Source: Candidatus Latescibacterota bacterium (GTDB lineage: Bacteria; Latescibacterota; UBA2968; UBA8231). From it: a stretch of DNA of 64,000 nt. Made by a program: the position numbers and the translations under genes. The notes below the pieces were generated by a model, which was given only the letters and a program-made list of their open reading frames with translations, had not been told where the DNA came from and ran no database searches. Below, piece after piece: positions 38,463 to 62,182 of this stretch; the first letter of the stretch is position 1, and the number at the start of each line of letters is the position of its first letter. Location: assembly GCA_965248265.1 (NCBI GenBank), contig CBDFJF010000001.1:608001-672000 (forward strand). Direction: 5' to 3'.

Positions 38463-38538
38463 GGCCCGTTCGTCTAGAGGCCTAGGACGCCGGCCTCTCA
38501 CGCCGGTAACACGGGTTCGAATCCCGTACGGGCTACCA
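38463..38538 (+). tRNA. tRNA-Glu (anticodon CTC)
   Basis: Acceptor GGCCCGT/ACGGGCT, anticodon arm CCGGC-CTCTCAC-GCCGG, T-loop GGTTCGAATCC, encoded CCA; 76 nt. Confidence 0.97.
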
Positions 38539-39145
38539 ACTGTTGCGACTCATCGAACTTCTGACACGGAGTATCGATGAGCGCGAGACGAATCTTGTCG
38601 GGGGTCCAAACGAGCTGGTTGACGCGGAGCCGAATTAGCTCCCGTCGCTCTTCTGGCAGGGCTTCCCGATAGAGATCATCAAAGGTCGTCAGGGACTCGG
38701 TCAATGACTGGGCACTGACGGCCTTTGCTTTTGTGGCTTGGATTTCGAAGTCAACCGCCAGAGTCTCGTCTTCGAGCTGCTCCTGCCGATCTTCGAGTTC
38801 TACAATCCGTCTGCCAACTGACTTGATCTTTCTCTTGCTGGCGATGCCATCCACGAGAGCTTCAATCTGTTCCTGGATGCTGCGACTCTGGCTCTTCAGC
38901 TCCGTTTTTCGCTTCCTCAGATTCCCAAGCAACTCGTCGGCTCCAGACATAGCCATCTGGACAATCCGTTCGATCGTGCGGTCTTGTTTGCTCAACTGGA
39001 TCAGACGCTCAGCGATGACCTGCTCCAGTGGCTCAGCAGGCAGCGGTTTCGTCTTGCAGGCTTCCGTACCACGGTGGTTCCGGTTGGTGCAAGCGTAGTA
39101 GCTGTACAGCCGCTTCTGTGGGTTGTAGCTGAACGTGGGCGTCAT
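38498..39145 (-). pseudogene. C-terminal remnant of a large serine recombinase (zinc ribbon + coiled coil)
   Basis: YYACTNRNHRGTEAC zinc-ribbon half, coiled coil, EERRELIRLRVNQL; the C-terminus reads through the tRNA 3' half. An in-frame stop lies just upstream of the start and no catalytic domain is visible. Confidence 0.8.
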
Positions 39146-39281: not shown

Positions 39282-41326
39282 GTCGAGTAGCCGAGGCCCT
39301 GTCATGCGGCCCCGGCCCTCACCAGATCCCAGCGAGCAGATTTCCCGCACTGGGCTCCTCCATTGACACGTCTCGCGGTTAGGAAAACCAGATCGATACA
39401 ACGATCCGGGGTCTTGGGAGTGGATACTGCCGGAGCAACCCCCGGTAGTATCGCTCCCACGTCAGGCGCGATCGCTGGCTACGTCGATTCAACCACTTGT
39501 ACCACGCAAACATCGCTGCGGTAGTGAGTTGGGTTACGCTGTTCCCATTCCCGCTGATACCGAAGTAGTTGATGTGGCCTTGGATGCGCCTTACGAGGTC
39601 GGCGTGCTGCTTTGGTATCGGCCAGTTCCGATGGCGACGGCACAGCCGATACAGGGCCTGCACAGACCGCTTGAGCCGATCACGCCGTGTCTTGCTCGTC
39701 AGCACCCATCGACCATTCGGGGCTCTCCGCCAAAACCACGTGAAACCCAGAAGGTCGAAGGTACCTGGCCCTTTACCCTTCGTCTGCTCCTGTGGTGGCC
39801 GCTCGAAAGGGATGAGCCGGGTCTTGTCTGGCTGCAGGGTTAGTCCGTATTTGTCCAGCCGCTTGCTCAGCACTGCCCTCACGCGCTCGGCATCCTCCGG
39901 CAGTTCGAAACCAATGATGAAATCATCGGCGTATCGGACCAACGTTGCTCTACGACGCAACCGTGGTCTGATCTCGACTTCAAACCACTCGTCGAGGACG
40001 TGGTGCAGGTAGAGGTTGCCAAGCAGTGGCGACAAACAGGAGCCCTGTGCGGTGCCTCGGTCCGGCGTAGAAAACTGTTCGCCATCCAGCACCCCAACGT
40101 GCAAGCACTTCCCCACGAGCCGGGTGATCGACCCATCGGGAATCCGCTCCCGGAGAAACTCCATCAGTTTGGATCGATCCAAACTGTCGAAGTAGGATGT
40201 AATATCCGCCTCCAGAATGACCTTCGCTTCCCCGTTCATCACCACCCGATTCAACACCCGCAGAGCGTCGTGGGCACTGCGTCCCGGACGGTAGCCGTAT
40301 GAGCAATCCCGAAAGTCCTGCTCGTAGACCGCCGACAGCACCTCGCGTAACGCCTCCTGGACAATCTTGTCCTCGAAGCACGAGATGCCAATGGGACGAG
40401 TCTTCTTGCCTTTGCCGTCCTTGGGGATGTGGACTCTACGAATGGGCTGGTGGCGCCACCGCTTAGTGCGCAGTCGCCGGTGCAGATCCTGCAGATTCCT
40501 CTCCAGGTCCTGCCCATACTGCTCCTTGGTCACGCCATCTACCCCGACTGCAGCGCTCGGCTTTTGATGGTCGAACGCCCTACGCAGAGCTTCCACGTCG
40601 ATCAGGTGTGCCAGCGAGTGAAACTTGGCCTGCGGCTCTCGCCTCGCTCTCTCCGCTACCTCCAAAAGTCCCGGTGACATGGACCCCGAAGTCAATGCAT
40701 CGGTCATGGTGCCCTCCTGAAGTTCGTGTCAACACGGACCGCCTTGGCTCCGCCGGGTCCAGCTGCCAACCGTTCCCCGACTTCTCAGCTACTACACGGT
40801 CCTCCGACTCCCCATGCTCCATCGGTCGCCGCTCCGGTTCCCCTCGCAAACGACCTACCACGGTGCCCACGCTTGTTCTTAATCGGCCACGCGTGCGTGT
40901 GCTGACGCGTGGCGCGTCGGAGACTTCTTCACCGGCTCTCCGTAGCACCGGAATCAATCCGTGGAGAGGCTGGGGCCTCCCAGGTTCCTGGGTCATCCTC
41001 TGCGAGCGTGCCCTGGTCGTATCACACCCCGCCGGGGTGTCGTCGCCTTGCCCACATAACGCCGACGACACTGCTGCCTTCAGGTAATCCGGCACCCTCA
41101 GCTATCCCGGAACGGTCTCATTTCAGGGCCGCAATCCCACAGCCCGCTCGCTCACTGCCCTACTGCTTCGCCTGCCCCGTTACCGGGAACACACGCAAGG
41201 GCTCGTTTCTGGCCTGCCGGGCTCAGCTTTGGCCAGGCGGGTTTTGCACCCGCGGGACGACTAACCGTATTTCAAGAAAGTATCACCTCCTTCTATTCCT
41301 ACGGACCAGACTTGCCTGGTCGCATC
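39282..41326 (-). mobile_element. Group II intron, copy 1 (2045 nt)
   Basis: Minus strand begins GATGCGACCAGGCAAG and ends with domain V (GAGCCCAGTGCGGGAAATCTGCTCGCTGGGATC) and domain VI ...GGCTACTCGAC. Boundaries come from comparison with copy 2; the 5' end is uncertain by 1 nt. Confidence 0.93.
39379..40707 (-). CDS. ltrA: Group II intron reverse transcriptase/maturase without an endonuclease domain
   Basis: RPIGI, YGYRPGRSAHDA, QGSCLSPLLGNLYL, RYADD, FDLLGF, X domain; RBS AGGAGG. Confidence 0.95.
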   Translation of the reverse strand: MTDALTSGSMSPGLLEVAERARREPQAKFHSLAHLIDVEALRRAFDHQKPSAAVGVDGVTKEQYGQDLERNLQDLHRRLRTKRWRHQPIRRVHIPKDGKGKKTRPIGISCFEDKIVQEALREVLSAVYEQDFRDCSYGYRPGRSAHDALRVLNRVVMNGEAKVILEADITSYFDSLDRSKLMEFLRERIPDGSITRLVGKCLHVGVLDGEQFSTPDRGTAQGSCLSPLLGNLYLHHVLDEWFEVEIRPRLRRRATLVRYADDFIIGFELPEDAERVRAVLSKRLDKYGLTLQPDKTRLIPFERPPQEQTKGKGPGTFDLLGFTWFWRRAPNGRWVLTSKTRRDRLKRSVQALYRLCRRHRNWPIPKQHADLVRRIQGHINYFGISGNGNSVTQLTTAAMFAWYKWLNRRSQRSRLTWERYYRGLLRQYPLPRPRIVVSIWFS

Positions 41327-42694: not shown

Positions 42695-43948
42695 GTGAAG
42701 ACACCACTGCTCACAGCGTTGGTGCTGGCATCCGCGTTGATCCTGCCTGGCAGCTCGACAGCGGCGAATGCAACGGACTACACGTTCGTACTGCTGGATC
42801 AAGCAATCTACCGCGGCGGAATGGCGCATGTGAATGCCGCCGGACAGGTTGCCCTCTCAACAATTGACCGAGAAAACAATCCCCAGGCGTGTCGGTGGTC
42901 AATCACTGAGAAAGAAGCTCTGTCTCTGGGGACCTTGGCGTCTCACGATCCGCGCTCACTCGCCAAAGCGATCAATGACCGTGGACACATAGTTGGGACT
43001 GTGCATGAGGAGGAAAACAACCTCGTCCATGCATTCTATTGGACTCCCACCAGCGGCATGCGGCGACTCCCTTCGTTTGGTGGATCCCAGACTGTACCAG
43101 TTGATATCAACGACCGGGATCAGGTCGTCGGCCAGTCAATAAATGCAGATGGCCTGGAGCGAGCTTTCCTGTGGACCGCCGATAACGGAATCAGAGACCT
43201 TGGCTCATTGGTGGAAGAAACCGAGAAGACGAGATCACTCACCAAACAGGACTCCGCCAACATCGGCACCGTGGCGACAGAACTGGGAGAGCCCGTTTTG
43301 AGTCCCGGCGGCAAGGTTTTTAAACAAGCGGTGATATCCTCCGTACTGAGAAGGCAGAGCGAGGCTGGGGCTGTGAACGAACAGGGTTGGGTGGTCGGCA
43401 CCTCGAGAGCCATCGATGGCCTTGATCATCCCTTTCTCTGGAAGCCGGAGACCGGGATGATCGATCTGGGAATACTGCCAGGCTATGTCGGAGGGGCGCC
43501 CACCGGTATCAACAACCGGGGACAAGTCCCCGTTGTCCTGTTCAAGCGCCAACCTTTCAAGCGTCGCTCCTGGTTCCTGGGATCCCCGTTCCTGTGGGCG
43601 GACGACGAAGGCCTCGAGCCATTGCCATCGCCGCCTGGTTTCAATGACATCCGGCCAATAGCGATCAACAACAGCGGCGACATTCTGCTCTGGGCACGGA
43701 AGATACCGGAAGGAGAGCCCACGAATAAATCGATCGAATTCACCGGCTTCCTCCTGTCTGGCGACGGATTGTCCGAGTTGCCACAGTTGGAGGGCGCAGA
43801 CCTCACTAAATATTCGGGCATCAACGACAGAGGACACCTTGTCGGGAGTGCTACGAACTGTGAGTTCGACACTGATGGTGAGGTTGTCAGCAGGTCCGCA
43901 AGAGTCTTCGTTGCGGTACCCACCGGCTCGCGTGCAAGCATCGAATGA
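42695..43948 (+). CDS. Secreted HAF-repeat (extracellular repeat) protein
   Basis: GTG start after GGAGG, signal peptide, repeats INDRGHIVG/HAFYW/DLG. Confidence 0.85.
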   Translation: MKTPLLTALVLASALILPGSSTAANATDYTFVLLDQAIYRGGMAHVNAAGQVALSTIDRENNPQACRWSITEKEALSLGTLASHDPRSLAKAINDRGHIVGTVHEEENNLVHAFYWTPTSGMRRLPSFGGSQTVPVDINDRDQVVGQSINADGLERAFLWTADNGIRDLGSLVEETEKTRSLTKQDSANIGTVATELGEPVLSPGGKVFKQAVISSVLRRQSEAGAVNEQGWVVGTSRAIDGLDHPFLWKPETGMIDLGILPGYVGGAPTGINNRGQVPVVLFKRQPFKRRSWFLGSPFLWADDEGLEPLPSPPGFNDIRPIAINNSGDILLWARKIPEGEPTNKSIEFTGFLLSGDGLSELPQLEGADLTKYSGINDRGHLVGSATNCEFDTDGEVVSRSARVFVAVPTGSRASIE

Positions 43949-43961
43949 TTTGGCTGTTCGT

Positions 43962-43988
43962 GCCCATCGTTTGCCCACTCCGATGGGC
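43962..43988 (+). repeat. 27-bp island site (perfect 8-bp arms)
   Basis: gcccatcg-tttgcccactc-cgatgggc, 13 nt after a stop codon. Confidence 0.8.
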
Positions 43989-44063
43989 GGATTTGCTTGC
44001 GATCGTATGAGACTCTCACCGATCTTTCACACATAGATTGTTCATCTAAGCGAAGGAGATGTC

Positions 44064-44891: not shown

Positions 44892-44918
44892 GCCCGTCGT
44901 TCAGGTAATGCGATGGGC
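44892..44918 (+). repeat. 27-bp island site
   Basis: gcccgtcg-ttcaggtaatg-cgatgggc, 7 nt after a stop codon. Confidence 0.8.
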
Positions 44919-46967: not shown

Positions 46968-47013
46968 CACGGCGGCCCATGGAAACGCTGTCTCAAGATG
47001 CACGATTGCCCAT

Positions 47014-49058
47014 GTCGAGTAGCCGAGGCCCTGTCATGCGGCCCCGGCCCTCACCAGATCCCAGCGAGCAGATTTCCCGCACTGGGCTCCTCCATTGACA
47101 CGTCTCGCGGTTAGGAAAACCAGATCGATACAACGATCCGGGGTCTTGGGAGTGGATACTGCCGGAGCAACCCCCGGTAGTATCGCTCCCACGTCAGGCG
47201 CGATCGCTGGCTACGTCGATTCAACCACTTGTACCACGCAAACATCGCTGCGGTAGTGAGTTGGGTTACGCTGTTCCCATTCCCGCTGATACCGAAGTAG
47301 TTGATGTGGCCTTGGATGCGCCTTACGAGGTCGGCGTGCTGCTTTGGTATCGGCCAGTTCCGATGGCGACGGCACAGCCGATACAGGGCCTGCACAGACC
47401 GCTTGAGCCGATCACGCCGTGTCTTGCTCGTCAGCACCCATCGACCATTCGGGGCTCTCCGCCAAAACCACGTGAAACCCAGAAGGTCGAAGGTACCTGG
47501 CCCTTTACCCTTCGTCTGCTCCTGTGGTGGCCGCTCGAAAGGGATGAGCCGGGTCTTGTCTGGCTGCAGGGTTAGTCCGTATTTGTCCAGCCGCTTGCTC
47601 AGCACTGCCCTCACGCGCTCGGCATCCTCCGGCAGTTCGAAACCAATGATGAAATCATCGGCGTATCGGACCAACGTTGCTCTACGACGCAACCGTGGTC
47701 TGATCTCGACTTCAAACCACTCGTCGAGGACGTGGTGCAGGTAGAGGTTGCCAAGCAGTGGCGACAAACAGGAGCCCTGTGCGGTGCCTCGGTCCGGCGT
47801 AGAAAACTGTTCGCCATCCAGCACCCCAACGTGCAAGCACTTCCCCACGAGCCGGGTGATCGACCCATCGGGAATCCGCTCCCGGAGAAACTCCATCAGT
47901 TTGGATCGATCCAAACTGTCGAAGTAGGATGTAATATCCGCCTCCAGAATGACCTTCGCTTCCCCGTTCATCACCACCCGATTCAACACCCGCAGAGCGT
48001 CGTGGGCACTGCGTCCCGGACGGTAGCCGTATGAGCAATCCCGAAAGTCCTGCTCGTAGACCGCCGACAGCACCTCGCGTAACGCCTCCTGGACAATCTT
48101 GTCCTCGAAGCACGAGATGCCAATGGGACGAGTCTTCTTGCCTTTGCCGTCCTTGGGGATGTGGACTCTACGAATGGGCTGGTGGCGCCACCGCTTAGTG
48201 CGCAGTCGCCGGTGCAGATCCTGCAGATTCCTCTCCAGGTCCTGCCCATACTGCTCCTTGGTCACGCCATCTACCCCGACTGCAGCGCTCGGCTTTTGAT
48301 GGTCGAACGCCCTACGCAGAGCTTCCACGTCGATCAGGTGTGCCAGCGAGTGAAACTTGGCCTGCGGCTCTCGCCTCGCTCTCTCCGCTACCTCCAAAAG
48401 TCCCGGTGACATGGACCCCGAAGTCAATGCATCGGTCATGGTGCCCTCCTGAAGTTCGTGTCAACACGGACCGCCTTGGCTCCGCCGGGTCCAGCTGCCA
48501 ACCGTTCCCCGACTTCTCAGCTACTACACGGTCCTCCGACTCCCCATGCTCCATCGGTCGCCGCTCCGGTTCCCCTCGCAAACGACCTACCACGGTGCCC
48601 ACGCTTGTTCTTAATCGGCCACGCGTGCGTGTGCTGACGCGTGGCGCGTCGGAGACTTCTTCACCGGCTCTCCGTAGCACCGGAATCAATCCGTGGAGAG
48701 GCTGGGGCCTCCCAGGTTCCTGGGTCATCCTCTGCGAGCGTGCCCTGGTCGTATCACACCCCGCCGGGGTGTCGTCGCCTTGCCCACATAACGCCGACGA
48801 CACTGCTGCCTTCAGGTAATCCGGCACCCTCAGCTATCCCGGAACGGTCTCATTTCAGGGCCGCAATCCCACAGCCCGCTCGCTCACTGCCCTACTGCTT
48901 CGCCTGCCCCGTTACCGGGAACACACGCAAGGGCTCGTTTCTGGCCTGCCGGGCTCAGCTTTGGCCAGGCGGGTTTTGCACCCGCGGGACGACTAACCGT
49001 ATTTCAAGAAAGTATCACCTCCTTCTATTCCTACGGACCAGACTTGCCTGGTCGCATC
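47014..49058 (-). mobile_element. Group II intron, copy 2 (apparently identical to copy 1)
   Basis: Same sequence offset by 7732 nt; all internal ORF translations match copy 1. Confidence 0.93.
47111..48439 (-). CDS. ltrA: Group II intron reverse transcriptase/maturase
   Basis: Identical 442-aa translation to 39379-40707. Confidence 0.95.
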   Translation of the reverse strand: MTDALTSGSMSPGLLEVAERARREPQAKFHSLAHLIDVEALRRAFDHQKPSAAVGVDGVTKEQYGQDLERNLQDLHRRLRTKRWRHQPIRRVHIPKDGKGKKTRPIGISCFEDKIVQEALREVLSAVYEQDFRDCSYGYRPGRSAHDALRVLNRVVMNGEAKVILEADITSYFDSLDRSKLMEFLRERIPDGSITRLVGKCLHVGVLDGEQFSTPDRGTAQGSCLSPLLGNLYLHHVLDEWFEVEIRPRLRRRATLVRYADDFIIGFELPEDAERVRAVLSKRLDKYGLTLQPDKTRLIPFERPPQEQTKGKGPGTFDLLGFTWFWRRAPNGRWVLTSKTRRDRLKRSVQALYRLCRRHRNWPIPKQHADLVRRIQGHINYFGISGNGNSVTQLTTAAMFAWYKWLNRRSQRSRLTWERYYRGLLRQYPLPRPRIVVSIWFS

Positions 49059-50597: not shown

Positions 50598-50723
50598 GCC
50601 CCAAGCATCGGGCCTCAAAGTCTACGACATCGGTGTCCTCCGGTGCGTTTGTGCTACCGGCTCGTGCTGCGATGAACGTAGCCGGTGGGTTTGGCGCAAA
50701 TACCGCGAGAGATAGAGGCAGGG

Positions 50724-51595
50724 ATGTCCGTAGTCAGAGAATTCCGTAACGACGATCTCGAACAGCTCCAGCTCCTGATCAACTCACATGTGGACTGCCT
50801 CGTGCCCGGTTGGAGTCTACCGTTGGAGTACATCGCCAACCGGCTGGTCCGCAATCCCGATGAGTACATTACCGATCCTTTGGTCGTCGAGCGCACCACG
50901 TTGATCACCTTGGTCGAGGACCGCGTGTGCGCCGCCGCTCACCTCCTGAGAAGTGCTGAGGGTGGAGAGATTGAGTGGATTCTTGCGTGGCCCGAAAGCA
51001 AAGGTGCTGGCGCCGCCGTCCTCGACGCCGCGCATCAGCACATGGTTGATTGGGGCGTGGAACACAGCGGCATCGGATTGTCCCTGCCGATCCCGGTCTG
51101 CGGGGGTGTCCCCGATGTCTGGCCGCACATCGCCTCGCGCTCATCACAGACGCCGGATATACGCCCAAGCCGGGATCAGAGGAAGCGGTGTATGGTGGCA
51201 CCGTCACGTTGATTCCCGCCCCAGGTGACCCGCCGGTCGATGGCTTGAGCATCGTGCGCCACATGCGAACCTTTGGAACGCGATTCACCGCAGTGATCGA
51301 CGGGCAGGAGGTGGCCTGCAGCGAAGGGTACGCAGATCTGACCAAGGGGGGGCGATTGCCGAGTTTGTCCGGCTGGGCAGAGATCTCTGAAGTAAGGACC
51401 CAAGAGGCATGGCGACGACAGGGCATCGGCACGTGGGTGATGCAACACTTGGTTGACTGGTTGCGGCTAGGTGGATGCGATCGGTGTTTGTTTCCTGTCA
51501 GCAGTGACGATGAAGAGGAAGGTGCCGGTCCCTTTTATGAAAGCTTCGGATGGATGCCCTTCACGCGATCGATCAAGTGGTGGGAACGTACGTGA
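50724..51595 (+). pseudogene. Frameshifted tandem GNAT acetyltransferase
   Basis: N-terminal half (MSVVREFR...WPHIAS) and C-terminal half (LITDAGY...WRRQGIG...FYESFGW) lie in different frames; shift near 51138. Confidence 0.75.
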
Positions 51596-51642: not shown

Positions 51643-51669
51643 GTCCGTCACCGACAGCATCCGACGGGC
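51643..51669 (+). repeat. 27-bp island site
   Basis: gtccgtca-ccgacagcatc-cgacgggc. Confidence 0.75.
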
Positions 51670-52662: not shown

Positions 52663-53088
52663 ATGACCGACCGAAGAAAGGAAACACCCTGGCCGTTCGT
52701 GAAGGCGGGCGTGGCTGGGGTACTGCTTAGAGGTGACCGCATCCTGATGGTCCGGAGAAGATACGGAGCTAAGAGAGGAAGCTGGTGCATTCCTTGCGGA
52801 AACGTTGAGATGGGTGAGGATGTCAGAGATGCTGTCAGACGCGAGATTCATGAAGAGACTGGACTGGACGTAGCGGTCGGTGAGGTCGTCGATGTACTAT
52901 CGACACATCACTCACCAGAGAGGAGCGTTGTCGGAGTGTGGTTTCACGTCACAGAGCAAGGCGGAGACCTGGTTGCGGGAGACGATGCGGCCGAGGTCCG
53001 TCTTTTCCCTCTTGATGAACCACCAACAGAGATGGCATTCGAGGCAGATCTGCAGATAATTGAGCGACTCAGAAACTCCATCGAGTAA
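52663..53088 (+). CDS. Nudix hydrolase
   Basis: GNVEMGEDVRDAVRREIHEETGL Nudix box. Confidence 0.9.
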   Translation: MTDRRKETPWPFVKAGVAGVLLRGDRILMVRRRYGAKRGSWCIPCGNVEMGEDVRDAVRREIHEETGLDVAVGEVVDVLSTHHSPERSVVGVWFHVTEQGGDLVAGDDAAEVRLFPLDEPPTEMAFEADLQIIERLRNSIE

Positions 53089-53667
53089 ATGGATAAGACT
53101 CTGATCGTCTGGCGAAGAACCGGCAAGGAACACGGCGAGGATTCATTTCAGGTTAACCCTCCGGAGTTGATCGATGAGCACCTCCGAAGCAAGATTGAGC
53201 AGGTGCGCGCTACACAAGACGACGAGTGGCGATGGTATCAGATCAACGACGAGGTGCTGGTAGAGATTCCCGAGCCCGACGAACACTACAAGCCCTCCAG
53301 TCGGATCTACTACCTGCCAAAACGGCACTGTGTGGCCATAGCCGATCTGAGATTCGGTGGATTCCGCCGTGAAAAACAGCCTTGGGAACCGGAGTTGTTC
53401 TGGTATGTCCACGTCGGAGCGATAGAGTTCGATCAGAAATATGGCTCGTGGGTATTCACCGACCTATTCGCAGACGTAGTGGCGTCTCGCGATGGGCTGA
53501 TTTACCGGGTCAAGGACCTTGACGATGTGGCAGAGGTGATGCGGCTCGGCCTGATCGATCAGCAGAAAGCTGCCTTCATCCTTGACCGTACGCATGATCT
53601 GATTGAGGCGATGAAGATGAACGAATTCCCCTTCCCCGAGCTTCAGAAGGCCATGGATGAAGATTGA
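53089..53667 (+). CDS. DUF402-like protein
   Basis: WYVHVG...FTDLFADVV...VKDLDD pattern. Confidence 0.6.
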   Translation: MDKTLIVWRRTGKEHGEDSFQVNPPELIDEHLRSKIEQVRATQDDEWRWYQINDEVLVEIPEPDEHYKPSSRIYYLPKRHCVAIADLRFGGFRREKQPWEPELFWYVHVGAIEFDQKYGSWVFTDLFADVVASRDGLIYRVKDLDDVAEVMRLGLIDQQKAAFILDRTHDLIEAMKMNEFPFPELQKAMDED

Positions 53668-53701
53668 AACTTACGCTAACGATCCAGACGCTCGTACGTA
53701 C

Positions 53702-53728
53702 GACCATCTCCTCTACAGGACGATGCTC
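53702..53728 (+). repeat. 27-bp island site
   Basis: gaccatct-cctctacagga-cgatgctc. Confidence 0.65.
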
Positions 53729-53837
53729 GGTTTTCTGCCTGATTCGTGAAAGCGGCCAAAGGTTCGTGGAACAGCCTATTTCGTTGGATTGTGCGAACCT
53801 TTGTTCGCATATAACCAGTTTGAAAGCGAGTGAGAGT

Positions 53838-54464
53838 ATGGCAGCTGACATGCGCGAAACAGACGTTGGTCACTATCTGCAGCGGTCTGAGGTGATGGAC
53901 TTTGAAGACGAAGACGTGTTGCGGCAGGCGCATGAGTTGGCCGCAGGCAGTACGGATCCAGCTGCCATCGCGAAGCGCTGTTTCGAGTGGGTGCGGGACG
54001 AGATCAAACACAGTGGGGATTTCCAGATGGACCCGACCACGTGCAAAGCCTCGGAGGTTCTCCGCCACGGATCCGGTTGGTGCTTCGCGAAAAGCCACCT
54101 GCTAGCGGCATTTCTTAGGGCCAACGGAGTACCTGCAGGTCTGTGTTACCAGCGACTTGCGCGCAACGGGCGAACCGCACTATTCACCCTGCATGGATTG
54201 AATGCAGTTCACTTGCCCGAGTATGGCTGGTACCGCGTTGATCCGCGTGGCAACAGACCGGGTGTGAACGCGGAGTTCGCTCCACCCAGGGAGCAGCTGG
54301 CCTGGCCGATCAAGGTTTCAGGGGAAGGCGACTTGCCTGGGGTCTATTCCGATCCACTACCAGAGATTGTTTCCCTGTTGAATAGCCACGCCACGTGGCG
54401 GGGAGTGCGTGACAACCTGCCTGACACAGCAGTACCAGTTTCACAGGGAGACGCCATCACATAA
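53838..54464 (+). CDS. Transglutaminase-like protein (integron cassette)
   Basis: WVRDEIKHS, GWCFAKSHLLAA, HGLNAV, WYRVDPRG; stop codon lies in the attC R'' box. Confidence 0.9.
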   Translation: MAADMRETDVGHYLQRSEVMDFEDEDVLRQAHELAAGSTDPAAIAKRCFEWVRDEIKHSGDFQMDPTTCKASEVLRHGSGWCFAKSHLLAAFLRANGVPAGLCYQRLARNGRTALFTLHGLNAVHLPEYGWYRVDPRGNRPGVNAEFAPPREQLAWPIKVSGEGDLPGVYSDPLPEIVSLLNSHATWRGVRDNLPDTAVPVSQGDAIT

Positions 54465-54548
54465 CAACTCCATACCTGCTTCGTCGCTTCGCTCCTCGGC
54501 CTTGGGGCAACGGCCTGCGGCCGTTCAGGTATGGGTAAGACGTTAGCC
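54459..54548 (+). mobile_element. Integron attC site 1 (90 bp)
   Basis: R'' ACATAAC, inner IR CATACCTG/CAGGTATG, R' GTTAGCC. Confidence 0.85.
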
Positions 54549-54588
54549 GAAAGCGAATCATGTCCTGACACATAATGTCGAGGTTGCA

Positions 54589-55245
54589 ATGGAACGCATT
54601 ATTGCGAATCTCTATCGCTGTAGCAGCGCGAAAAGTAAGAAGGAAAACACTCACACCTATTTTCTCCAAAGAGACGAGGGCAACTTACTGGTCTGCCACC
54701 AAACAGCTCCCTCGAGCGAAGACCTTGATCAGATCGAGGGATTGGGCGGGATTGGAAGTCAATGGGTGTGTCACCAACATGATCTCATCGGAAACGGCCT
54801 CCACGACGAACTCTACGAACGCTTCGGATGTATGCTCCATCATCATCGTGCCGATGTGAAAGGAGTGCGCAAGAAGACTAAGTGTCCTGAGGTGCAGTTC
54901 GGCAACGATGGCTTGGAACACGGCTCAGATTTCGAAGCGTTGTATTTCCCCTGCTGCACAGATGGATTCACGATTTACCGATGGCGTGACAGAAGCAAGT
55001 ACTTTCTGATATCGAGTCACGCAATCTGCATGCGTGATGGAGAGTGGAGAGTACATTTTCCGTACCCCGCGTACCGCAATGACCTCCTGCGACCTCAGAT
55101 CGCCAAACTCGCCAAGACGAGAGTGGACTACGTGTTACCAGGGTACACGGCGCCAGACGAAGATGAATACTACCGCCTCAACGATCAGTCGAGGAAGTCT
55201 CTTTCTGCGACTTTGAGGGCAAGATCTCGGGCAGACACTGAGTAG
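54589..55245 (+). CDS. Metallo-beta-lactamase-fold-like protein (integron cassette)
   Basis: TYFLQRDEGNLLV, HQHD, HHHRAD, YVLPG. Confidence 0.65.
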   Translation: MERIIANLYRCSSAKSKKENTHTYFLQRDEGNLLVCHQTAPSSEDLDQIEGLGGIGSQWVCHQHDLIGNGLHDELYERFGCMLHHHRADVKGVRKKTKCPEVQFGNDGLEHGSDFEALYFPCCTDGFTIYRWRDRSKYFLISSHAICMRDGEWRVHFPYPAYRNDLLRPQIAKLAKTRVDYVLPGYTAPDEDEYYRLNDQSRKSLSATLRARSRADTE

Positions 55246-55274
55246 GCGGCTGCAGATGACCGGAACTCGCCTTC

Positions 55275-55370
55275 GGCTAACAGCACGCTTTGGGCTGCGG
55301 CGCGTTCGCGCCTTGGTCTTCGGCGGCGCCTCGGCAAGCTCGGCGTTCGCAAACCGGCAAAACGTTATGT
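55275..55370 (+). mobile_element. Integron attC site 2 (96 bp)
   Basis: R'' GGCTAAC (complement of the previous R'), GC-rich internal hairpins, R' GTTATGT. Confidence 0.8.
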
Positions 55371-55421
55371 GAAACCGTCTCGAGCGCTAGGCGGTCGAGC
55401 GAGGAAGGGGAGGGCATCGAG

Positions 55422-55958
55422 GTGAGGACACTCTACACGGTTGCGTATCCGGAGTTGGACGTGTCCGACGCAGAGTTCATTGCCCGCTTTCGGGACCAGC
55501 ACGATCTGCCGTACCGCGACGTTGTGGGAGCGCATTTCACGCTCGTGTTTGGCTATGAAGCGGAGGGTGAAGCAGCCTACCTCGACCATGTGAAGTCGGT
55601 TGTCGCGAGGCGGGCCCCTATCGATTTCCACTGTCGGTACGCGATGCTAGGCGACGACGCGACGAGCGACACGGCCCACGTGTTCCTGGTCCCCGATGAA
55701 GGGTACAGCTCCATGTCACTGCTGCACGACTCGCTGTATAGGGAATTGCTCGCCGATTATCTTCGATTGGATGTAGCCTACACGCCGCACATCACGATCG
55801 GGACGCTGGAGGACAGTCGAGTCGCGAAACGCCTGTGCGACGAGTTGAACGAGCAGAAGGTGGACATTCGCGGTCGAGTCGACGCCGTGACGGTCGGCGC
55901 TTTGGTCGGTGGGACACTGGAGGACGTGGCGACGTTTCCGTTGGCGGGCGAAGGTTAG
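55422..55958 (+). CDS. 2H phosphoesterase (2'-5' RNA ligase family; integron cassette)
   Basis: Two HxT motifs: AHFTLV and PHITIG. Confidence 0.85.
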   Translation: MRTLYTVAYPELDVSDAEFIARFRDQHDLPYRDVVGAHFTLVFGYEAEGEAAYLDHVKSVVARRAPIDFHCRYAMLGDDATSDTAHVFLVPDEGYSSMSLLHDSLYRELLADYLRLDVAYTPHITIGTLEDSRVAKRLCDELNEQKVDIRGRVDAVTVGALVGGTLEDVATFPLAGEG

Positions 55959-55998
55959 ACGCCAGCGGGAGCCAGTGAGCATTGCGGCCGACGGCTAC

Positions 55999-56088
55999 AC
56001 ATAACAGGTCCACTGGCGGCTGCGGGCCTTCGGCTCTCTGCGAATACCCGCCTTACTGCGGGCGTCGCCAGTGGCCAAGACGTTACCT
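55999..56088 (+). mobile_element. Integron attC site 3 (90 bp)
   Basis: R'' ACATAAC (complement of the previous R'), inner IR CACTGGCG/CGCCAGTG, R' GTTACCT. Confidence 0.85.
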
Positions 56089-56134
56089 GAAATTGAAGAG
56101 AAGGTAGCTGGGGGATGGCACACGTTCGGAGATA

Positions 56135-56677
56135 GTGAGAATTCAGGTGGACGAGACGATTGTACGGAAGCTATCAGAATTCGAGGCACAATGGCGTGAA
56201 AAATATGAGGCTGAAAGGAAACAGCTTCTCACAGTTTTCGGGGATGCCGCGCTTGAAATTGAGCATATCGGCGGGACCGCCGTCGATGGTCTGACGTCTA
56301 AGCCAGTCATTGACATTGCCGTGATGATCGAGCGTCGAGAAGACGCCGACAGTTTCAGTGAAGCTCTGGCTAGTCTGGACTACACCTTCAGGTCACTCAG
56401 TACCGAGCGGCATTTCTATGTAAAGGGGAGGCCGCGCGAGTTTCACCTGTCTGTTGCCTACGCCGACGAGGGTGGTTTTTGGCCGAGGCAGATCCTGTTC
56501 CGCGACTATCTACGCACTCACCCCGAAGCTCGCAGAGAATACGCACAGCTAAAGACCGAGCTGTTGAGTGGAGATCCATCTGGTGAGACGTATTCGGAAG
56601 GTAAAACAGATTTTGTATACCGCATCCTAAATTTGGCGGGTTGGAAGACCGGCGAGAAATACAGTCCACGCAGTTGA
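56135..56677 (+). CDS. GrpB (UPF0157) family nucleotidyltransferase-like protein
   Basis: IEHIGGTAV, KPVIDI, FRDYLR, YAQLK, YSEGK. Confidence 0.88.
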   Translation: MRIQVDETIVRKLSEFEAQWREKYEAERKQLLTVFGDAALEIEHIGGTAVDGLTSKPVIDIAVMIERREDADSFSEALASLDYTFRSLSTERHFYVKGRPREFHLSVAYADEGGFWPRQILFRDYLRTHPEARREYAQLKTELLSGDPSGETYSEGKTDFVYRILNLAGWKTGEKYSPRS

Positions 56678-56724
56678 TGATGAGGCGATCCCATCCTGAA
56701 TGTGCGAACTGTTGCCTCGCCGCC

Positions 56725-56751
56725 GCCCGTCAGATCCTATATCTGATGCCC
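56725..56751 (+). repeat. 27-bp island site
   Basis: gcccgtca-gatcctatatc-tgatgccc; inner TCAGAT/ATCTGA palindrome. Confidence 0.75.
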
Positions 56752-56799
56752 GGCCCCCTACATGCAATTCGTTGTTGATATTCCTCGCGGAGGGCGATA

Positions 56800-57399
56800 A
56801 TGCAAACAAGATGGCATGATCTCGTTTTGACGTTGGCACTGTCCGCAAACGCATCGCTGGTAGGCTGTGCGACTCCTGCGCGCCAACTGGTCCCGGACGA
56901 CACCGAAATCCTTTCCCTTACCGCTCGGCACGATGCCTCGATCCTGGCCGTCGATCGCACCGACCACGCCAAAGATTGGATCGGCGAGTATAAGGGCCGT
57001 GGCGATTTTTTCAACGGGCAATTTTGGGAGCGCCAGAGGGCCACTCGGGTGTTTTTTAATTATGGCCGAAGAACAGCCGATGGCCGCCGAACTATTTCAA
57101 TGGGTGGATTCACTAATAGAATCGATGCTCATGAGGGGCATTTTGCCATTCACGACATAGAACTGGGCGAGTCAAGTGAGGTGAAGGGAGTTTTCGGAGG
57201 ATTCCCTGCCGATAAAGGGCTGCGTCGAAATCGCGAAAGATTGGAGTATACCTTCTCGTTGAATGACGATGGAATTGAGGGGCATGTAAAGCAATACTGG
57301 GCGGAAGGCGAGGACGGGCCGTTTGTCCCCAGGAAACAATGGGTTTTTGAATTGAAGAAGAACCGCGTAGACCGGGGCTTAGTTGGTTTTCCTCAATGA
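56800..57399 (+). CDS. Hypothetical lipoprotein
   Basis: RBS GGAGG, lipobox-like LVGC; more AT-rich than its neighbours. Confidence 0.55.
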   Translation: MQTRWHDLVLTLALSANASLVGCATPARQLVPDDTEILSLTARHDASILAVDRTDHAKDWIGEYKGRGDFFNGQFWERQRATRVFFNYGRRTADGRRTISMGGFTNRIDAHEGHFAIHDIELGESSEVKGVFGGFPADKGLRRNRERLEYTFSLNDDGIEGHVKQYWAEGEDGPFVPRKQWVFELKKNRVDRGLVGFPQ

Positions 57400-59551: not shown

Positions 59552-60199
59552 TCAGGCGGCGAAATCCAGCTCAGGTTGGGGATGGGGGCGTGCCGGGGCG
59601 ATCGGCGGTGCCCGTGGTGGCAGGCCGACGCCTTCCAGGTAGCGGGCAATGGAGCGGGGCTGGGTGAGTGCCGCGACGATTTTCATATGGCCGCCACAGC
59701 CGGGGCACACGGTGACGTCGACGCGGAACACTCTGCGCAAGAGGGCGGCCCAGGCCAGGCGGTGTCGGCGTTGGGCGGGTGTCGGCTCACCAGTTCGACC
59801 GGGGACCGGCTCTGGGTCCTGCACCTGTTCTTGTGGGCCGGGTACGATCTGTGCCCGAGCGGCGGCGTTGGGCGCCAAGACGCCATGGTAGCGCACCAGA
59901 TTGAGGCGTCGTGGGGGCACCAGGGCGGCCAGTTTCTCGATCAATTCTTGTGGCGAGAGCTCAATTCGATAGGTGCCGTCTGACCAGGGCGTTTTCAGGT
60001 CGAAGGCCACCTGCTCGGCATCGAGGATCTGCAGGCGTCCCGCCGCCAGCGGCGGTCGATTGACGTAGCGGCACAGTCTTTCCAGGCGAGTGCGGTCGGC
60101 GGCTGGCACACGGGTGGCCGCATGCAGGGAGAAGCCGCGGCAGAGCGGACGCCAGGGCTCGCGACCAGTGCCCGGACACTCGCTGGTTTCCGCTTGCAT
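59552..60199 (-). pseudogene. 5'-truncated IS91/ISCR-like (Y2 HUH) transposase
   Basis: GFSLHA, RLERLCRYVNRPPLA, LKTPWSDGT, RYHGVLAPN, CPGCGG; the N-terminal half including the HUH motif is missing. Confidence 0.85.
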
Positions 60200-62155: not shown

Positions 62156-62182
62156 GAGCATCGGATCCATACTGCGATGGTC
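62156..62182 (-). repeat. 27-bp island site, reverse orientation
   Basis: Minus strand gaccatcg-cagtatggatc-cgatgctc, overlapping the stop of a minus-strand gene. Confidence 0.75.

Follow-up and report, generated by a model that had tools for sequence, protein, structure and literature searches.

An integron cassette array with an attI-like platform and no integrase between two 27-bp palindromic sites in a Latescibacterota genome

Introduction

Integron cassette clusters that lack an integrase are common and poorly understood. Positions 53702-56751 of the DNA examined here (64,000 nt from a Candidatus Latescibacterota bacterium; this whole stretch is called the window) raise the question of how such a cluster came to be flanked on both sides by a 27-bp palindromic site. 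An earlier note on the window had proposed that a fragment of an integron, with three attC sites and no intI, was captured as one unit by a second system, or else that attC cassettes were inserted into that system. We analyzed the locus within its source genome (G000, consisting of contigs C1 and C2) and 40 related genomes (labelled with G numbers). The segment is an integron cassette array without integrase, and its nesting between 27-bp sites is real and systematic. That this nesting reflects a second recombination system is plausible from the sequence comparisons, at best an even bet and perhaps doubtful.

Results

The array and its attC sites

From left to right, the segment comprises a 27-bp site, an attI-like site, three cassettes ending in attC, a GrpB cassette without attC, and another 27-bp site (Table 1). 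The attC sites were examined with a covariance model, R1, which stood in for the attC covariance model of IntegronFinder. A hidden Markov model of the window's three sites retrieved about 30 relatives elsewhere in the genome, and R1 was built from an alignment of 20 full-length attC sites drawn from this source, all outside the window; its structure (R helix, L helix, and two inner helices) was written by hand. With filters off, a search of both strands of the 64 kb revealed three full-length plus-strand attC sites at 54456-54551, 55272-55373, and 55996-56091, with scores of 76.6, 74.7, and 45.9 bits (E 2.4e-16, 7.3e-16, and 9.3e-09), respectively, and no fourth attC on either strand (next-best E 0.43). 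Since R1 was built without the window's sites and finds just these three, they are real members of an attC family, and none lies at the other gene boundaries. The sites that the earlier note had placed at 54459, 55275, and 55999 were thus recovered at full length by an independent model, which neither rejected them nor added attC sites at other boundaries.

R1 gave 28 attC matches in the whole genome, 27 of them on the plus strand. In its alignment, 85.5% of the cells were paired compared with 74.5 +/- 1.1% in shuffles, and 54 cells carried double changes compared with 20.8 +/- 3.4, with such changes in 12 of the 23 pairs. None of 500 shuffles matched either observed value, and controls with slid partners were 29-43% paired. 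Folding of the single-stranded bottom strand gave z values against shuffles of -2.3 for attC1 and -3.1 for attC3; attC2 folds poorly alone (z +1.0). A simple R/L-box script recovered attC1 and attC3 only, because the L box of attC2 is too imperfect. A scan of the window at Rfam gathering thresholds returned two group II introns and a transfer RNA (tRNA), with no attC-type family among the matches.

The pairing of each R' with the next R'', on which the earlier note had relied, holds in both internal cassettes. R' of attC1 (GTTAGCCGAA) is complementary to R'' of attC2 (TTCGGCTAAC) at 10/10 positions, or 14/15 when extended, and R' of attC2 (GTTATGTGAA) to R'' of attC3 (TACACATAAC) at 9/10, or 14/16. 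The first cassette matches at 3/10, and the last has no attC. The outer partner boxes are missing, as had been described: with up to three mismatches allowed, the upstream box GTTATGTGATGGCG gave 6 matches in the window compared with 4.87 expected, none of them upstream of cassette 1, and the downstream box CAATTTCAGGTAAC gave 3 compared with 2.2 expected, the sole match with 0 mismatches being the site itself. The 27-bp motif stands at 53702 and 56725, the latter 47 nt from the GrpB stop codon, and none of the six window sites lies at an attC boundary.

No tyrosine recombinase was found among 28 open reading frames (ORFs) scanned in 37.6-64 kb of the window, and the PF00589 gene nearest to the array (C1:685751, about 21 kb beyond it) is not IntI-like. 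The three attC sites share the plus strand within 1.7 kb. A cluster of attC sites lacking integron integrase is known as a CALIN, as the term is given in the part of Cury et al. (2016, PMC4889954) that covers it, with at least two co-oriented attC within 4 kb as the working criterion. The segment is a CALIN by definition, plus an attI-like site. An intI with the IntI-specific domain beside the array, as in a complete integron, is absent from the window, and the only candidate in the genome scores below the family cut-off (see below). A promoter scan of 53600-56900 yielded 0 sigma-70-like sites compared with 1.5 expected, and the 4 cassette proteins gave 0 PADLOC matches.

Table 1. Features of the array, other 27-bp sites and introns of the window, and attI-like platforms of the genome (plain numbers are window positions; C1 and C2 are contig positions)
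Feature	Position	Strand	Description
Left 27-bp palindromic site	53702-53728	+	GACCATCTCCTCTACAGGACGATGCTC, GACCATC-N13-GATGCTC; centre and right arm kept with the attI-like platform in four paralogous copies
attI-like platform (P2)	53729-53820	+	Core TGTGCGAACCTTTGTTCGCATATAACCAGTT at 53790-53820; presumed crossover G53818/T53819
Cassette 1	53819-54542	+	Transglutaminase-core protein, ORF 53838-54464, 208 aa (Pfam), and most of attC1
attC1	54459-54548	+	R'' ACATAAC, R' GTTAGCC; R'' overlaps the transglutaminase-like stop codon
Cassette 2	54543-55364	+	218-aa protein, ORF 54589-55245, no family match; complete, obeys R'/R'' logic
attC2	55275-55370	+	R'' GGCTAAC, R' GTTATGT; 2 L-stem pairs broken
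Cassette 3	55365-56082	+	2H/LigT-type phosphoesterase, ORF 55422-55958 (Pfam)
attC3	55999-56088	+	R'' ACATAAC, R' GTTACCT
Cassette 4, without attC	56083-56724	+	GrpB-family protein, ORF 56135-56677 (Pfam)
Right 27-bp palindromic site	56725-56751	+	GCCCGTCAGATCCTATATCTGATGCCC
27-bp site A	43962-43988		Same variant at C1:705181, with homologous left flank and unrelated cargo on the right
27-bp site B	44892-44918		26 nt 100% identical to C1:705995-706020, closing unrelated cargo there
27-bp site	51643-51669		
27-bp site	62156-62182	-	Best match on the minus strand
Group II intron copy	47014-49058	-	Reverse-transcriptase ORF 47111-48439; splits a 27-bp site into 47008-47013 and 49059-79
Second group II intron copy	39282-41326	-	99.8% identical; in a 27-bp site with degenerate left arm
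Platform P1	C1:1755296		Beside the IntI-like gene
Platform P3	C1:778550		
Platform P4	C1:841084		
Platform P5	C2:3895772		
Platform P6	C1:782035		Orphan platform

attI-like platforms and an IntI-like integrase

Paralogues exist for the 115 nt that precede the first cassette. Collection by nhmmer and a mismatch scan gave six copies in the genome, five of them clear (nhmmer E <= 3e-29) and one divergent. The platforms share the core TGCGAACCTTTTGTTCGCATAyAAGCAGTT, and conservation stops exactly at GTT, after which each copy differs. Complementarity between the bases that follow GTT and R'' of the first attC extends to 9/10 positions in P1, P4, P5, and P6 and to 10/10 in P3. The array is real, as the earlier note held; it is not a mere fragment of an integron, since an attI-like platform precedes its first cassette. 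Only P1 has an integrase beside it, and the other five platforms, including P2, are integrase-less. All five of these orphan platforms begin 55-100 nt after a 27-bp site, and the integrase-linked P1 has none. A partial attI-like stretch at 56700-56716, before the right site, was rejected as chance-level (e.g., 1 mismatch at C2:337739). The platform core also holds CGAAC-N4/5-GTTCG (53790-53806 in the window, and in the five other copies), which looks like a LexA (SOS) box of the Cheo type, so that parts of an SOS-regulated promoter may survive in the orphan platforms.

The absence of intI holds for the window, but the genome search revealed an IntI-like gene grouped with an attI and 4-5 attC sites in C1:1.754-1.762 Mb. 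The gene (C1:1754213-1755103, minus strand, 1.09 Mb from the window array) encodes a 296-aa protein that has TIGR02249 as its top NCBIfam family (239.7 bits). Among solved structures it is closest to VchIntIA, the Vibrio integron integrase (2a3v, E 2.4e-47); Xer proteins rank behind (E 6e-35 and weaker). The array divergent from the gene comprises four R1 matches at C1:1756020-1759639 and a partial fifth attC at about C1:1761727 (nhmmer E 0.079; R1 E 0.0013, with R1 run on that locus). Among the 41 genomes (G000 and the 40 relatives), canonical IntI above the cut-off occurs in 8 and the short type in 10, including G000. Short integrase genes lie 0.7-8 kb from opposite-strand attC matches in G002, G010, G015, and G018, and the type accompanies attC arrays in at least four genera other than that of G000. 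The gene neighborhoods argue that short IntI-like recombinases do the job of IntI in this clade, which is their predicted role.

One toxin-antitoxin-like cassette (TTAGAGGCCATGCGG...) follows both the P1 attI, next to the IntI-like gene, and the attC at C1:779848. Both junctions are at G/TTAGAGG, and a 627-nt stretch is 99.7% identical. A cassette that stands after attI at one locus and after attC at another bears the mark of insertion by both attI x attC and attC x attC recombination. We propose that the cassettes would be cut out and inserted at G/TT by the IntI-like tyrosine recombinase, which would act in trans on the window array from 1.09 Mb away.

Four points speak against this proposal. 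At P2, TTTGAAAG stands after G53818/T53819 where attC1 requires TTATGTGA, a match of 3/10 compared with 9-10/10 at the other platforms; therefore, the window array is not the plain product of attI x attC insertion, and its missing upstream box is real and exceptional even under the genome's own rule. The IntI-like protein falls under the TIGR02249 cut-off of 265 bits, which no protein of the genome passes, this one being the best. It has 19 residues aligned where VchIntIA has 61, so the IntI-specific insertion of about 40 residues is missing. Recombinases near attC without the specific domain were judged not to be IntI in the section of Cury et al. (2016, PMC4889954) that treats them, from four cases. 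The integron level as a whole is ordinary, apart from two unusual features, its short integrase and its orphan attI platforms.

Cassette homologues in other genomes

The LigT cassette together with both attC sites has a counterpart at G018:C1:4037011-4037822 (78% identity across about 810 nt), which stands second in an array of five attC sites and has different neighbours there. GrpB homologues stand inside attC arrays of G002, G010, and G018, and the closest one (G030, 55% amino acid identity) also follows an attC, with none following it. A transglutaminase-like gene fragment, its 5' end missing, is followed by an attC in G002. The earlier note had suggested comparing the native borders of the transglutaminase and GrpB cassettes; homologues were found (G002 and G030), and native outer borders were not recovered. 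Since homologues stand in the arrays of other genomes, these cassettes belong to a pool shared across genera.

A 1.3-kb repeat (98-99.8% identical; C1:1010162-1011476 and at least seven other copies, e.g., C2:3899639-3901050 and C1:1757470-1758887) lies directly 5' of attC in three or more arrays, perhaps as an insertion sequence (IS) that targets attC or as an element that itself moves as a cassette.

The family of 27-bp sites

The pattern GNCCRTC-N13-GAYGNNC gave 9 strand matches (6 sites) in the window compared with 0.52 +/- 0.75 in 100 shuffles, none of which reached 9. The second site family inferred in the earlier note is therefore borne out by six window sites where about 0.5 strand matches are expected, and the 27-bp sites constitute a separate, real family. 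A weight matrix (score >=16) found 66 sites genome-wide compared with 3 in a reversed control. Fifty-one of the 66 sites lie in C1:640-1040 kb, 5.5% of the genome (about 370 kb of it), and about ten further sites in C2:3.889-3.922 Mb. Conservation is limited to the site and one base per side; the outer 7-bp arms are conserved and the 13-bp centre is variable. The strict palindromic pattern occurs at 18 sites in G000 and at 0-3 in each of the 40 relatives (control pattern, 0-5).

When 185,579 species genomes were scanned for one site variant, 44 matches came back, compared with about 70 by chance (a rough estimate). Only one of the 44 was a full site (locus L069, genome G041), and G041 carries the motif at background level (16 and 21, compared with 24 and 23 for the control). 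No such 27-bp family came up in the literature, in a search that was not aimed at sites beside integron arrays and is no proof of novelty.

The C1 region that holds most sites starts at a tRNA gene (38463-38535) and has a GC skew of about 0 inside a replichore of negative skew. A terminus/dif origin for the region was rejected because the skew is about 0, with no terminus-type turning point. The sites were also rejected as repetitive extragenic palindromic (REP) elements with a REP-associated tyrosine transposase (RAYT): the genome has 0 matches to PF01797, the Y1/RAYT transposase, for which controls were positive in 6/14 genomes, and the sites are not spread genome-wide.

A group II intron is associated with the sites. 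Its boundaries were inferred by lining up the six genome copies, with the intron taken as GATGCG...CTCGAC. In five of the six copies, joining the flanks gives a 27-bp site that the intron interrupts between positions 21 and 22; full-consensus arms occur in three of these sites and a degenerate left arm in two. None of the six lies within an attC site. Five copies are on the minus strand, opposite to the attC arrays, and the sole plus-strand copy (C2:783708) is the one outside a 27-bp site. The reverse transcriptase has no endonuclease domain, and Rfam names just group-II-D1D4-6. On alignment of its copies, the intron appears to home to the 27-bp palindromes at a fixed position. The inferred 5' end of the intron, GAUGCG, is unusual.

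Could the whole island be one old degenerate integron array, with 27-bp sites that are eroded or miniature attC sites? Small genes of typical cassette function (GNAT, NUDIX, and GrpB) run on one strand at 50.7-59.2 kb, and attC clusters, 27/28 of their sites on the plus strand, are scattered over the same 370 kb, as this explanation would have it. However, R1 saw no further attC in the window (next E 0.43); with the remaining gene boundaries free of attC, the island is not a single degenerate array. Moreover, the 27-bp sites have no AAC/GTT boxes, their outer 7-bp arms are conserved without pairing covariation, and a whole attC and a 27-bp site stand side by side at C1:781952. Genes of the 400-kb region also occupy both strands (189 plus and 143 minus of 332 called). 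We therefore regard this explanation as very improbable, and the 27-bp sites are treated below as a family distinct from attC.

27-bp sites as block boundaries

The array facts, cassette movement by an IntI-like recombinase in trans, and blocks set at the 27-bp sites together form our best explanation, which we hold to be evenly poised between right and wrong. For its upper level, which is less sure than the cassette level, we propose that attI and cassettes would be cargo between two sites of the second repeated-site family, and that recombination at or in the 27-bp sites would have fixed both ends of the block.

The comparison of platforms bears on this level. P2-P5 are homologous from about position 12 of the 27-bp site onward and have unrelated left arms and flanks. 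All orphan arrays then meet a 27-bp site, strong at window 56725, C1:781954, and C2:3909142 and weak at C1:784256 and C1:844326. The array ends vary at these sites: a complete attC abuts the site at C1:781952, an attC is cut at model position 56 at C1:860732, and GrpB lacks attC in the window. Over window 56723-56747 (25 nt, including the first 23 of the right site), the sequence is identical to that at C1:781954, the site bordering the final attC of a different orphan array. Recombination at the block level would explain integrase-less attI platforms behind 27-bp sites at five places, as well as arrays that stop at sites at arbitrary points, whether after a whole attC, in mid-attC, or after a gene without attC.

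Homology also breaks at the sites away from the arrays. Window 43604-43989 and C1:704824-705208 share a left flank (82% identical) and site A; site B follows 0.8-0.9 kb past site A at both loci with 26 nt 100% identical, and the DNA and ORFs between the two sites are unrelated. Between C1:700337 and C2:3044283, the flank is 94% identical and the site is shared as far as about position 22; the right arm and the DNA beyond it differ. Of the site type found at C1:678042, the left half alone is present at C1:787680. G041 has a single true site, and the 1.6 kb to its right are 98% identical to C1:711885-713486, the left part of the site being different; core genes of G041 and G000 are only 67-76% identical. 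As to one module in different contexts, a platform-plus-array unit occurs after a site at five places and one locus pair has swapped cargo, but no identical whole module was seen at two loci.

Capture by an IS would be another source of such block ends. According to this explanation, the ends arose from rolling-circle capture of ISCR/IS91 type or from another transposon, and the 27-bp sites are bystanders. An IS91-family stump does lie at 59552-60199, with tens of paralogues in the genome, and the segment shared with G041 lies between IS copies 99-99.9% identical to those of G000. However, the stump is 2.8 kb past the right site, no IS end abuts 53702 or 56725, and 5/5 orphan platforms start at a 27-bp site and none at an IS end. 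Ends of oriIS/terIS type were not seen at any of the five arrays. We consider IS capture quite unlikely, and return to the proposal that the 27-bp sites themselves set the block ends.

Several results tell against that proposal, and most of them would be expected if the palindromes were passive. In this alternative, the array is an ordinary decayed CALIN, and the palindromes are regulator- or partition-type binding sites or REP-like repeats of an acquired island, sometimes hot spots of illegitimate rearrangement, with one ancestral platform copied together with its neighbouring site. By context, 51 sites divided into 18 ++, 13 -+, 8 +-, and 4 -- and 8 inside called ORFs, so that they occur in all intergenic kinds. 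The variable positions of the two arms show no covariation, and thus no selection for a hairpin. The right arm and the left arm of the next site matched at a mean of 1.19/3 compared with 1.33 for random pairs, and an integron-like arm logic for the 27-bp sites was rejected on this random level. Apparent breakpoints in the sites are scattered at about 10-12, 17-18, and 22-24, with no single position. The five platform-site junctions are paralogous and possibly derive from one event.

Furthermore, no recombinase was tied to the 27-bp sites among the recombinase genes examined in the islands. These comprise four paralogous tyrosine recombinases (among them C1:685751, C1:703299, and C2:3930322), two of which were checked and stand each beside a gene for a ParB helix-turn-helix (ParB-HTH) protein or a resolvase; the ParB-HTH genes, too, would suit partition-type sites. 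An intact small serine recombinase is encoded at C2:3931252-3931839, and a resolvase fragment lies 200 nt from the site at C1:875082. No excision product was seen in contigs of four public runs (three of one sample and a seawater metagenome), and such contigs are uninformative on excision. Of five public runs, four contain the stretch and come from one sample; the fifth, the seawater metagenome, belongs to another sample and study (share 0.05) and covers only diverged pieces of 57.8-59.4 kb and 54.0-54.3 kb. Apparent joints in the runs at 54501-55345 and 55374-56225 were rejected as excision and ascribed to cross-mapping, since they show low likeness, have other or unknown letters between, and lie in attC paralogues.

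Passive sites are in turn difficult to reconcile with the unrelated left flanks of P2-P5, where homology starts inside the site, with the 100% identical 26 nt of site B closing two unrelated cargos, with the right arm swapped in the 94% identical pair, and with a horizontally shared segment (G041) that ends inside a site. The confinement of the sites to islands of zero GC skew and the lack of a Y1/RAYT transposase in the genome also count against passivity. We regard passive sites as a real possibility, if on the improbable side.

The earlier note's idea of an array captured as a unit by a second system thus finds partial support. The distinct site family, breakpoints inside the sites, and one swapped cargo are in its favour; no enzyme, no fixed crossover, and no arm logic accompany them, and it is the missing recombinase and the missing fixed crossover point that keep the support partial. 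The 27-bp palindromes may mark the edges of larger movable gene blocks. A more specific proposal, which we put forward tentatively and think rather unlikely, is that they are recombination sites of an undescribed chromosomal block-exchange system with a logic like that of dif modules and another site design and enzyme. This system would move blocks of 0.25-30 kb over about 370 kb, would carry integron platforms as cargo, and would have its own group II intron, so that two levels of gene capture would be nested.

Island context and neighbouring genes

About 500 kb (C1:650000-1150000) have a skew near zero and hold most 27-bp sites, scattered attC clusters, introns, and IS relics; this region looks like a very large acquired or reshuffled block of DNA. 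At 38463-39145 of the window, the C-terminal portion of a large serine recombinase (Zn_ribbon_recom, minus strand) comes immediately after the tRNA gene, and an intron copy comes next; this arrangement looks like the border of the island of about 370 kb. The IS91-family (Y2_Tnp) transposase stump, on the minus strand, has at least 41 genome matches of at least 80 nt. Identity between G041 and G000 is 99-99.9% in shared IS copies and 98% in a GDPD-gene segment, which suggests either that distant lineages have recently exchanged DNA horizontally or that the bin is mixed.

The GNAT acetyltransferase gene at 50685-51595 is split over the overlapping frames 50685-51212 and 51050-51595 and is probably frameshifted. 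The NUDIX gene at 52698-53069 shows 73-77% DNA identity to five genomes outside the family of G000 (G027, G035, G036, and G039 in family f2; G040 in family f4), and a sixth match (G038, f2) covers only part of it; this identity is above expectation for the distance. The NUDIX protein was the sole PADLOC match among 8 proteins scanned (candidate family PDC-S07).

Discussion

Five orphan arrays that keep their insertion site behind the same palindrome point to a route for moving or cutting whole arrays, not just cassettes. If the palindromes are recombination sites, two gene-capture systems would be nested in one genome, and a second kind of recombination site besides attC would have its own homing intron. 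An integrase that lacks the IntI-defining domain, with cassettes nevertheless joined at its attI, bears on how integrons are counted outside Proteobacteria.

The array can be compared with several known systems. It resembles CALINs in its three co-oriented attC sites within 1.7 kb, in having no intI nearby, in its unknown or non-resistance cassettes, and in that another integron-type locus could act in trans. It differs in keeping an attI-like platform, a feature not expected in a CALIN, and in being one of five integrase-less platform-plus-array units of the genome with both ends at another repeat family.

Sedentary chromosomal integrons, such as the Vibrio superintegron, have homogeneous attC sites. 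The present attC sites likewise form a lineage-wide family of similar sites, also found in relatives, and small cassettes of toxin-antitoxin, GNAT, and GrpB type occur in both. In contrast to these integrons, the linked recombinase here has no IntI-specific insertion, and the arrays are short and split over loci.

In complex class 1 integrons, integron parts are combined with insertion sequence common region (ISCR) elements. Here too, integron parts stand beside a second gene-gathering element, and IS91-type relics occur in the genome; the borders, however, are 27-bp palindromes rather than oriIS ends, and there are no resistance genes.

Group IIC-attC introns insert in the bottom strand of attC, opposite to cassette transcription, as described in the relevant part of Leon et al. 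(2010, PMC3001079). The intron described here is similar to them, as far as that part goes, in being an endonuclease-less intron in a palindromic recombination-type site, opposite to the cassette direction. Unlike those introns as described there, it has as its target the 27-bp site (5/6 copies, positions 21/22) and not attC.

The pdif sites that bound the dif modules of Acinetobacter plasmids (XerC/XerD) are 28 bp long in an 11-6-11 arrangement with conserved inner arms and variable outer parts, according to the passages on these sites in PMC6449649. An IS1202-family IS is reported to target them. The sites studied here, with outer 7 bp conserved and a 13-bp centre variable, lie outside the pdif definition given in PMC6449649. 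They are also chromosomal, with about 51 sites in 370 kb, and away from the terminus inferred from skew. By eye, no formal comparison having been made, they bear no likeness to the dif sequence of E. coli. Both systems have short palindromes (27 bp here and 28 bp there) with gene blocks between them that vary freely in content and orientation. Blocks of one kind appear to recur in different contexts, and a mobile element targets the sites, namely the group II intron here and, as reported, the IS1202-family IS there.

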